DNA from: Bacillota bacterium
GTDB lineage: Bacteria > Vulcanimicrobiota > SpSt-956 > JAKJGF01
Assembly: GCA_022704525.1 (NCBI GenBank)
Contig: JAKJGF010000033.1
Location: 1 to 30,842 of the forward strand
Direction: 5' to 3'
DNA length: 30,842 nt
Part shown: piece by piece, positions 5,592 to 6,680 of the stretch
Position numbering within the stretch: the stretch's first letter is position 1
How the letters are laid out: every line of letters begins with the position of its first letter
The notes under the pieces: model-generated
Database searches by the model: none
Told to the model about the DNA's origin: nothing
Seen by the model: the letters and a program-made list of their open reading frames with translations, nothing else
Program-made: the position numbers and the translations under genes

Positions 5592-6680
5592 ATGAAGATT
5601 GATGGTAATTTAACTGCTACAAATTTAATAAAACAGGGTAATCAGCTCCAGGTAAAAGAGGATAGTACTGTAAAAGAACCTGTAGATTCTGCGGTAATTT
5701 CTTCTGCTGAATTCAGTAAAATCGGTCAACTTCTGGCAAAGACAACTTTTGATTGCGGCGTTAGTGTTAATACTGCTTCAGAACAGAGAAGAATACAGAA
5801 AGAAGGTCTGGCATCTATGGTTGCAAATTCTGGTACGACACAGGATGAGAAAACTCTGGCCGGCCTTGGAATAACCTTTGGAGATCATTATATGTATGAT
5901 GTGAGTGCCGCAAGGACCAGAAATGTCGTTTTACAGACTATCATAGGTGGTATAGGCGGAGCTATGGGTTCTGTTATAGCTAAAGTGACTTATGATGCAG
6001 GAGTTGCAGTTAAAACTGCCGAGGAACAGAGATTTATTCAGAAAGATGGTCTTCAGGCTATAAAGGAAAATCCCAAATCCTCACAGGATGAAAAGACCAT
6101 TGCCGAACTGGGAATAGTATTCGGAGATTCCTATATGAATAATACAAGTGCCACAAAGGCTAGAAATGTTGTTTTACAGACTATCATCGGCAATATAAGC
6201 GGCCCTATAGGTTCTGCTATAGCTAAAGTGACTTATGATGCAGGAGTTAAAGTTGAAACTGCCAAGGAACAGAGAGCTATTCAGAAACAGGGTCTTCAGG
6301 GTATAGTTGCAAATTCCGGTGCAACAAAAGAAGAAAAAGCTCTTGCTGAACTTGGAATAGAATTCGGAGATTCTTATATGTATGATACAAGTGCCACAAA
6401 GGCTAGAAATGTTGTTTTAAATACCATCAAAGGTGGTATAAATGGTTCCATAGGTTCTGTTATAGCTAAAGTGACTTATGATGCAGGAGTTGCAGTTAAA
6501 ACTGCCGAGGAACAGAGAGCTATTCAGAGACAGGGTTTTGAAGCTATATTGGCAAATCCTGATACGACAGAAGAGCAGAAGCTTCTCGCACAACGTGGCA
6601 TAGATGTAGGCGATCATTATATGTATGATACAAGTGCTGCAAAGGCCAGAAATATAATCTTGCAGGAACTTTTCAAATAA
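5592..6680 (+). CDS. Tandem-repeat protein (4 x ~81 aa units), function unknown
   Basis: GGGAGG RBS 9 nt upstream of the ATG. No signal peptide. Four units of the pattern KVTYDAGVAVKTAEEQRAIQKQGLQ...EEKxLAELGIxFGDSYMYDTSATKARNVVLQTIIGxIxGxIGSxIA. Strong intrinsic terminator immediately downstream. Confidence 0.7.
   Translation: MKIDGNLTATNLIKQGNQLQVKEDSTVKEPVDSAVISSAEFSKIGQLLAKTTFDCGVSVNTASEQRRIQKEGLASMVANSGTTQDEKTLAGLGITFGDHYMYDVSAARTRNVVLQTIIGGIGGAMGSVIAKVTYDAGVAVKTAEEQRFIQKDGLQAIKENPKSSQDEKTIAELGIVFGDSYMNNTSATKARNVVLQTIIGNISGPIGSAIAKVTYDAGVKVETAKEQRAIQKQGLQGIVANSGATKEEKALAELGIEFGDSYMYDTSATKARNVVLNTIKGGINGSIGSVIAKVTYDAGVAVKTAEEQRAIQRQGFEAILANPDTTEEQKLLAQRGIDVGDHYMYDTSAAKARNIILQELFK
5736..6680 (+). 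repeat. Intragenic tandem DNA repeat, period ~243 bp x 4 (near-identical units)
   Basis: Long identical stretches recur, for example ...TAGCTAAAGTGACTTATGATGCAGGAGTTGCAGTTAAAACTGCCGAGGAACAGAGA... at about 5975 and 6462. Unit starts are about 5739, 5982, 6225 and 6468. Confidence 0.85.

Follow-up and report, generated by a model that had tools for sequence, protein, structure and literature searches.

In the 30,842-nucleotide stretch analyzed here (positions 1 to 30,842 of contig JAKJGF010000033.1, assembly GCA_022704525.1, placed by GTDB in the Vulcanimicrobiota; hereafter the window), a genuine and solitary gene at 5592-6680 encodes a soluble protein composed of a disordered leader of ~40 residues followed by four tandem modules of 81 residues. 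The explanation that best accounts for the evidence, and to which we give about an even chance, is that the product is a tandem four-helix-bundle protein whose module number changes by recombination and which would act as a multivalent binding scaffold. The 81-residue module represents a protein family that is absent from the curated libraries searched and whose members, found in uncultivated bacteria, carry from 1 to 10 or more modules.

Organization of the Gene and Its Modules

The coding sequence lies on the + strand and specifies 362 amino acids plus a stop codon (5592-6680). It was taken from the list of open reading frames (ORFs) and its translation, and is matched by an identical partial product, P0001, and by the orthologues P0002 and P0004. 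A reading made earlier from the letters of this DNA alone (the sequence-only reading) had described a gene with its own ribosome-binding site, a strong terminator and no signal peptide, and all of these features were borne out. The ribosome-binding site, GGGAGG at 5577-5582 (+), is read directly from the sequence 9 nt before the ATG, and its GGAG core is conserved in the alignment with loci L002 and L005. A terminator scan places an intrinsic terminator with an 11-bp stem, a GAGA loop and a T-run at 6710-6742 (+; hairpin 6710-6735), and the 70-nt stretch that bears it, 6681-6750, has a folding energy of -15.6 kcal/mol (z = -2.69). Just past this terminator, a 72-aa ORF at 6747-6965 (+) aligns only with the C-terminal end of the putative restriction endonuclease Uma2, over positions 109-171 of the 172 in the profile. 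This ORF looks like a gene remnant; it overlaps a HemN-like gene at that gene's end and is also present in L001.

The leader (aa 1-40; 5592-5711, +) is predicted to be disordered, with predicted local distance difference test (pLDDT) values below 50 for residues 1-35, and carries no hydrophobic segment or signal peptide; indeed, no hydrophobic N-terminus was found in the 362-aa protein. The leader returned no match when scanned against Pfam, FlgM and FlaG included. A FlgM/FlaG-like N-terminus, which we presumed from the motif 'MKI[DN]...DxVxIS', was dropped for want of profile support: the FlaG, FlaF and FlgM profiles of Pfam and NCBIfam match neither the full protein nor, in five members of the family, an N-terminal stretch of 57-60 aa, and the annotation of P0002 as 'archaellum component FlaG' occurs in one Joint Genome Institute (JGI) record only.

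Tandem Repeats Finder detects a 243-nt period over 5865-6653 (3.2 copies, 79% matches), and a hidden Markov model (HMM) of the unit resolves the array into four units of the full 81 aa, at aa 41-121, 122-202, 203-283 and 284-362. These correspond on the + strand to 5712-5954, 5955-6197, 6198-6440 and 6441-6677, so that the units start at nt 5712, 5955, 6198 and 6441. The register opens with 'xGxIGxVIAK', as set by the structure, rather than at KVTYDAG as the sequence-only reading had proposed, and the region which that reading had taken for the N-terminus contains the start of unit 1. Its description of near-identical 243-bp units holds for the number of units and their period but not for their near-identity, as pairs of units are 64-81% identical at the DNA level and 52-69% at the protein level.

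Predicted Fold of the Module

According to structure prediction, every module is a separate up-down four-helix bundle. The AlphaFold2 model of the full-length protein, built with 7 homologues, contains 16 helices, four per unit (pLDDT 86.1; predicted template-modeling score, pTM, 0.81). A single-unit model of unit 2, built from 81 aligned diverse units of the family, recovers the same four helices with pLDDT 93.6 and pTM 0.85. In unit 1 the helices span residues 43-57, 62-78, 84-96 and 103-119, while the assignments of unit 3 and of the terminal unit 4 come from the unit HMM together with the full-length model. The earlier guess that a single unit would be a small helical domain is thus supported by both models. 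The Gly-rich segment IIGGIGGAMGSVIA / 'SGPIGSVIAK', which has a Kyte-Doolittle value of 1.73 and was considered as a transmembrane helix, is modeled with pLDDT >90 as a helix-loop-helix linker and N-cap between bundles, and the transmembrane reading was rejected.

A Foldseek search of the PDB gave no match at E <= 0.001. The best matches, none of them significant, are designed helical-repeat proteins and alpha-solenoids with TM-scores <= 0.37, and the fold searches as a whole returned generic four-helix bundles or solenoids only, which were set aside. Arrays of the Sel1/TPR, HEAT/ARM and spectrin or talin type resemble the window protein in having tandem helical modules in variable number and a likely binding or scaffold role. 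They are, however, built from a helix pair of 34-40 aa or from the three-helix spectrin repeat, whereas here the unit is a closed four-helix domain of 81 aa; the Pfam Sel1 and TPR models do not match the window protein at E <= 10, and no Pfam repeat family matched it.

A four-helix bundle is also the fold of histidine phosphotransfer (HPt) domains, and the gene at L002 directly follows genes for a PAS protein and a hybrid HisKA-HATPase-REC kinase, an arrangement that could point to a multi-HPt phosphorelay protein in which each bundle relays phosphate. This kinase neighborhood is absent at other loci. More decisively, HPt bundles carry a conserved phospho-accepting histidine, whereas the 81 aligned units have none; histidine occurs in only two of the four window units, in a GDHY loop. 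No Pfam Hpt match or sequence similarity was found, and identity to HPt structures is 9-10%, with cytochrome b562, YfdX and designed bundles matching equally well. Because of the missing histidine, we regard an HPt relay as nearly excluded.

A Protein Family Absent from Curated Libraries

Scans of Pfam and NCBIfam gave only matches below cut-off, and the sub-threshold library matches to TyrRSs_C, 3HCDH_N, SSPI and Mu Gam-like were rejected as products of repeat-inflated scores. The PADLOC anti-phage defence models yielded only 12-16 bits (E = 0.0017-0.008) to Cas2e and MTase_II, PHROGs gave weak matches only, and the best match of the unit profile among PDB sequences has E = 0.11. The statement of the sequence-only reading that the module belongs to no known family therefore stands against Pfam, NCBIfam, PADLOC, PHROGs and the PDB, none of which supplied a match above threshold to a well-known family.

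Relatives were found by an exhaustive HMMER search of the unit profile against 1.84 billion representatives of clusters at 50% identity, which returned 144 representatives at E <= 1e-3, 87 of them at E <= 1e-10. A word-indexed search had found 7 relatives only, and the 81-unit alignment, used in such a protein search, gave no result, which, given the 144 found by HMMER, we take as a limit of the method. Genome, metagenome and viral contig scans for relatives were negative. By our own domain count the fetched members have 1-10 units each, and one cluster includes a member of 1383 aa. All named members are labeled 'hypothetical protein'. Two come from one metagenome-assembled genome (GCA_054941295.1) of the Vulcanimicrobiota, the phylum formerly known as Candidatus Eremiobacterota/WPS-2 (PMC10927679).

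Paralogues can stand side by side. The contig L090 (1-12727) holds five in succession at 5289-12727, the last with 10-11 units, directly downstream of genes for an AAA_5 (MoxR-type) ATPase and an 861-aa VWA protein, and L008 and L007 have adjacent paralogue pairs; the MoxR-VWA pair beside a paralogue array was seen once only, in L090.

The only tie of the unit to known sequence is a hairpin of 23 columns that resembles the fungal Con-6 repeat (PF10346). Both contain the helix-turn-helix hairpin G-[FY]-x-A-[IT]-x-x-N-P-x-x-[ST]-x-E-x-K-x-x-A and both occur in tandem, but Con-6 is a 34-aa motif of small fungal proteins, whereas here the hairpin is the middle part of an 81-aa bundle with two further helices. 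The unit hairpin (G[FL]xAIxxNPxTTxxEKxLA) aligns with Con-6 repeats at an hhalign probability of 78% (E = 1.8e-5), and the unit profile matches a genuine Con-6 protein, P0147 (PF10346, 1.2e-61), at E = 7.5e-4. The window protein could on these grounds be a stress-induced protective or chaperone-like protein, distantly akin to Con-6 and co-regulated with an envelope-stress-type gene, since a near-copy of its upstream direct repeat (see below) precedes an LTXXQ gene by ~80 nt. That site, however, has 3 mismatches, and the similarity to Con-6 spans only 23 of 81 columns, mostly a helix-capping motif. Pfam Con-6 (gathering score 25 bits) matches neither the whole protein nor a single unit at E <= 10, while prediction gives the window protein a well-folded structure and its hydrophilicity is not pronounced (grand average of hydropathy, GRAVY, -0.22). 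To our knowledge the biochemical function of Con-6 is itself not established, and overall we consider such a stress-protein role rather improbable.

Tails and Fusions in the Wider Family

Many relatives carry C-terminal sequences beyond the modules. Of the 151 proteins fetched that the unit profile matches, 53 (P0013, P0015, P0018, P0023 and P0025 among them) have a conserved tail of the form '...MAENL... acidic stretch ... hxIxG[VI][KR]Lxx[KR]', and 6 have another, GDTxVSKRKQGPPP; both are missing from the window protein and its close orthologues. The first may, speculatively, resemble the cargo peptide of encapsulins; no encapsulin gene was seen.

The tail bears on the possibility that the protein is a substrate (effector) of a non-classical secretion or translocation route, whose modules bind a host or competitor target and whose copy number reflects an arms race. 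The lack of a Sec signal, the disordered N-terminus and the presence of the tail in the relatives noted above fit such a role, as do fusions to enzymatic domains (PI3/PI4-kinase-like in P0140, Peptidase_C26 in P0050), coiled coils with a bilobed hydrophobic segment in P0015, P0019, P0035 and P0105, neighboring genes at L093 that include a glutamine deamidase and a phytase of the protein tyrosine phosphatase (PTP)-like type, and an ankyrin-repeat gene in L094. So would the ratio of nonsynonymous to synonymous divergence (dN/dS) of 0.92 between the most recently diverged units. Yet the window protein and its close orthologues are tail-less, no secretion-system gene was seen in the window or the related loci examined, and fused domains of this kind are taken as marks of effectors on general grounds only. 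We judge an effector role unlikely.

Still more doubtful, in our estimate, is a broader proposal in which a new modular protein class of uncultivated bacteria (Vulcanimicrobiota and unplaced lineages) has the 81-aa bundle as its binding module. Delivery or targeting of these proteins, whether as translocated effectors or as a protein compartment's cargo, would then fall to the C-terminal peptide (acidic stretch plus hxIxG[VI][KR]L). Rapid intragenic recombination would tune their valency, and the window gene would belong to the class as a member that has no tail and is regulated separately.

Divergence and Probable Gene Conversion Among the Units

The pattern of identity among the units is mosaic. 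The longest identical run at a shift of 486 nt is a 66-nt tract whose first copy lies at the unit 1/2 boundary (5967-6032, +) and whose second, identical copy lies at the unit 3/4 boundary (6453-6518, +). It is the one run that answers to the >60 identical nt stretches of the sequence-only reading, and by our own arithmetic a run of this length has a chance of ~4e-10 per start site at ~72% background identity. Units 2 and 3, which are nearest neighbors in sequence (81% nt for unit 3 against unit 2), are joined by a 35-nt identical run. Such in-frame units with exact-identity tracts and a 243-nt period are one mark of a recombination-prone gene of variable repeat number. In 27-nt windows, unit-versus-unit identity ranges from 24% to 100%, a mosaic that argues for gene conversion and not for one recent duplication; the earlier suggestion of gene conversion is likewise supported by the exact tracts in a background of roughly 70% identity.

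Between-unit dN/dS is 0.40-0.46 in five of the six pairs, which by this measure appear to be under purifying selection. The youngest pair, units 2 and 3, has dS 0.23 and is the source of the 0.92 ratio given above.

Comparison with orthologues separates the ends of the array from its middle. Unit 1 shares 75% identity with unit 1 of P0002; for unit 4 the identity is 75% with the final unit of P0002 and 71% with that of P0004. In contrast, units 2 and 3 are 68% and 63% identical to each other within species, whereas unit 2 shares 56% and unit 3 64% identity with its interspecies counterpart. From these values the terminal units appear to be orthologous across species and the internal units to be homogenized within species. 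The 'recent expansion' of the sequence-only reading thus fails for the terminal units, which are old, their interspecies orthologues standing at 75% identity; turnover is confined to the internal units.

Differences in Unit Number

Among related short-read assemblies the gene has two, three or four units, in agreement with the variable copy number that had been expected for it. A different JGI sample yielded the contig L001, which corresponds to the window with exactly 486 bp, or two units, taken out; its flanks are 99.4% and 97.7% identical, and its junction falls in the overlap of its two alignments to the window, a region that includes the 66-nt tract. In a second species the 4-unit form (P0002) is found on three contigs from three samples and a 2-unit form (P0005) on a Logan contig. 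The P0002/P0005 junction shows only a 15-nt identical run in the 4-unit gene, which makes a simple k-mer collapse less likely. A third orthologue has three units, and in a more distant part of the family one 90% cluster contains both P0012, with 5 units in 525 aa, and P0150, with 6 units in 606 aa, a difference of exactly 81 aa. Collectively, these comparisons strongly suggest, at the level of sequence, that unit number changes by intragenic recombination.

All the sequences are short-read metagenome assemblies in which copy number differs from one to another, as might be seen if the repeat structure or the ORF were an assembly artefact or a non-functional repeat. We consider this exceedingly unlikely. 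Besides the window, the 4-unit form was found in P0001, whose contig of 1054 bp is a separate one, and on the three second-species contigs. Moreover, the units differ by 19-36% in DNA, which assemblers can resolve, most unit pairs have dN/dS <0.5, the structure models are confident, and there are 144 homologous clusters.

Bacterial in-frame genes with a variable number of tandem repeats (VNTR), such as surface-protein arrays, offer a likeness at the DNA level, sharing long repeats, exact tracts, a homogenized middle and conserved ends; the forms of the gene that are whole units apart would be candidate alleles of the kind seen there. However, the window units are far more diverged (64-81% DNA) than those of classical contingency or VNTR loci, and unlike surface-protein repeat arrays the window protein has neither a signal peptide nor a wall anchor.

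A Putative Operator Upstream of the Gene

A block of DNA conserved in three species lies upstream of the gene at 5493-5517 (+) and consists of an A-run and two 11-bp direct repeats, TTAACATTTTG / TTAACATTT(G). Its core, TTAACATTTTGTTAACATTT at 5498-5517, is degenerate at two positions across the three species. The resulting 20-nt pattern TTWACATTTTKTTAACATTT, preceded by the A-run, stands upstream of the orthologue in each of them even though the proteins are only 56-66% identical and the flanking DNA has diverged. The second 11-bp repeat doubles as the -35-like TTAACA of a sigma-70-like promoter candidate at 5509-5536 (+; TTAACA, 16 nt, TATATT), which a consensus scan scored with 10 of 12 matches. 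These features strongly suggest that the gene has a dedicated, conserved operator, which we call putative. Tandem-binding winged-helix regulators use an 11-bp direct-repeat spacing of this kind, so a dedicated regulator probably controls the gene.

The sequence-only reading had placed a possible operator in this upstream region, and that much stands, with the TTAACATTT direct repeat as the conserved cis-element; the 14-bp tandem repeat that it had also pointed to is not conserved. This repeat, at 5415-5444 in the intergenic DNA (no strand assigned), is made of four 7-bp units, CTATCAG/CAGTCAG, with a 14-bp period (2.1 copies, 93% matches in Tandem Repeats Finder), and it has no conserved counterpart in L002 or L005. 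It resembles other heptamer arrays of the window. Perfect or near-perfect intergenic 7-bp arrays lie at 12610-12660 (AGTGAGA x7), 14841-14912 (GTGAGAC x10, 100%), 14933-15075 (CTTCACG x20) and 25182-25218 (CTGCTCA x5), and we take them to resemble the short tandemly repeated repetitive (STRR) sequences of cyanobacteria.

With up to 3 mismatches allowed, the window contains four sites of the direct-repeat element, the gene's own included, against 0.12 expected. The three near-copies are all on the - strand. One, at 24489-24508 (2-3 mismatches), lies ~145 nt upstream of a 1238-aa ORF without a Pfam domain; a second, at 25101-25120 (3 mismatches), lies ~80 nt upstream of the LTXXQ (Spy/CpxP-type) gene; and the third, at 29890-29909 (2-3 mismatches), has no obvious downstream gene. 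The near-copies before the 1238-aa ORF and the LTXXQ gene suggest, as judged from the DNA, that the element may serve a small regulon. Between the 24489-24508 element and the start of the 1238-aa ORF there is also a perfect 26-bp tandem duplication (CAGGTAATATATTTCTTTATATTAAT x2, 24388-24439).

A Proposed Multivalent Scaffold with Recombining Module Number

The scaffold explanation joins these elements as follows. Transcription would start from the gene's own promoter, which overlaps the two conserved 11-bp direct repeats. Modules would be gained or lost through unequal homologous recombination between units, and gene conversion would hold tracts identical, with the terminal modules remaining stable while the internal ones turn over. 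The columns conserved among the 81 aligned units are G5, A9, R26, G32, I36, P40, T43, E46, K47, A50, G53 and R70, and every module would present the same polar positions from this set, R26, E46/K47 and R70. Such repetition would make the protein a multivalent scaffold for a repeated or oligomeric partner, whose binding valency would be set by the number of modules.

Several observations weigh against this explanation. The conserved positions are mostly structural in appearance (G5, A9, G32, I36, P40, A50, G53 and the helix N-cap, NPxTTxxEK), and a conserved binding surface is thus conjectural. No partner, ligand or conserved neighbor gene was found at the loci examined. The full-length AlphaFold model was built on 7 sequences only. 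Every copy-number variant derives from short-read metagenome assembly, in which a mis-join is possible, especially for L001 with its 66-nt exact repeat in the junction region. Finally, the -10 element of the promoter candidate is not conserved in the other species, which leaves the promoter assignment tentative.

Twelve contig look-ups for a conserved gene neighborhood found none, the neighbors differing at every locus. This, together with the lack of relatives on viral contigs, indicates that the gene stands alone on the chromosome.

What the analysis provides is the definition, together with a confident fold prediction, of a domain family that Pfam, NCBIfam and the PDB all lack, as well as an example of tandem-domain evolution with conserved ends, a mosaic middle and candidate alleles that differ by whole units. 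Experiments could begin from two leads, the putative direct-repeat operator and the tail, which a third of the family carries. Should module number vary within populations, the gene would be of use as a strain marker and could direct attention to a binding interaction on which selection acts. Pending the discovery of its function, we regard the impact as moderate: the protein is of a familiar kind, a helical tandem-repeat protein, and the family is new.

Other Features of the Window

An Rfam scan of the window gave no matches. A bacterial major-vault-protein-like ORF of 826 aa lies at 10134-12614 (+) and matches Pfam MVP_shoulder (1.7e-29), Vault_3 and Band_7. Side by side at 977-2566 (-) and 2782-4308 (-) are genes for a 529-aa WD40 beta-propeller protein, unassigned in its N-terminal half, and for a 508-aa protein with a CxxCxxCC domain. 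A link of the tandem-module gene to the major-vault-protein-like or WD40 genes was considered and dropped, as no such link was seen at other loci. At 17248-17864 (-) there is a PemK/MazF-type toxin gene, and before it an 85-aa ORF that matches DUF6364 weakly; the two likely form a type II toxin-antitoxin pair. The LepA (EF4) gene at 8106-9911 (-) shows <=64% identity to any match among 185,579 GTDB species representatives, a set from which the source lineage seems to be absent, and its best matches are scattered over the Ignavibacteria/Chlorobi, Gemmatimonadota, Acidobacteriota and Bacillota.

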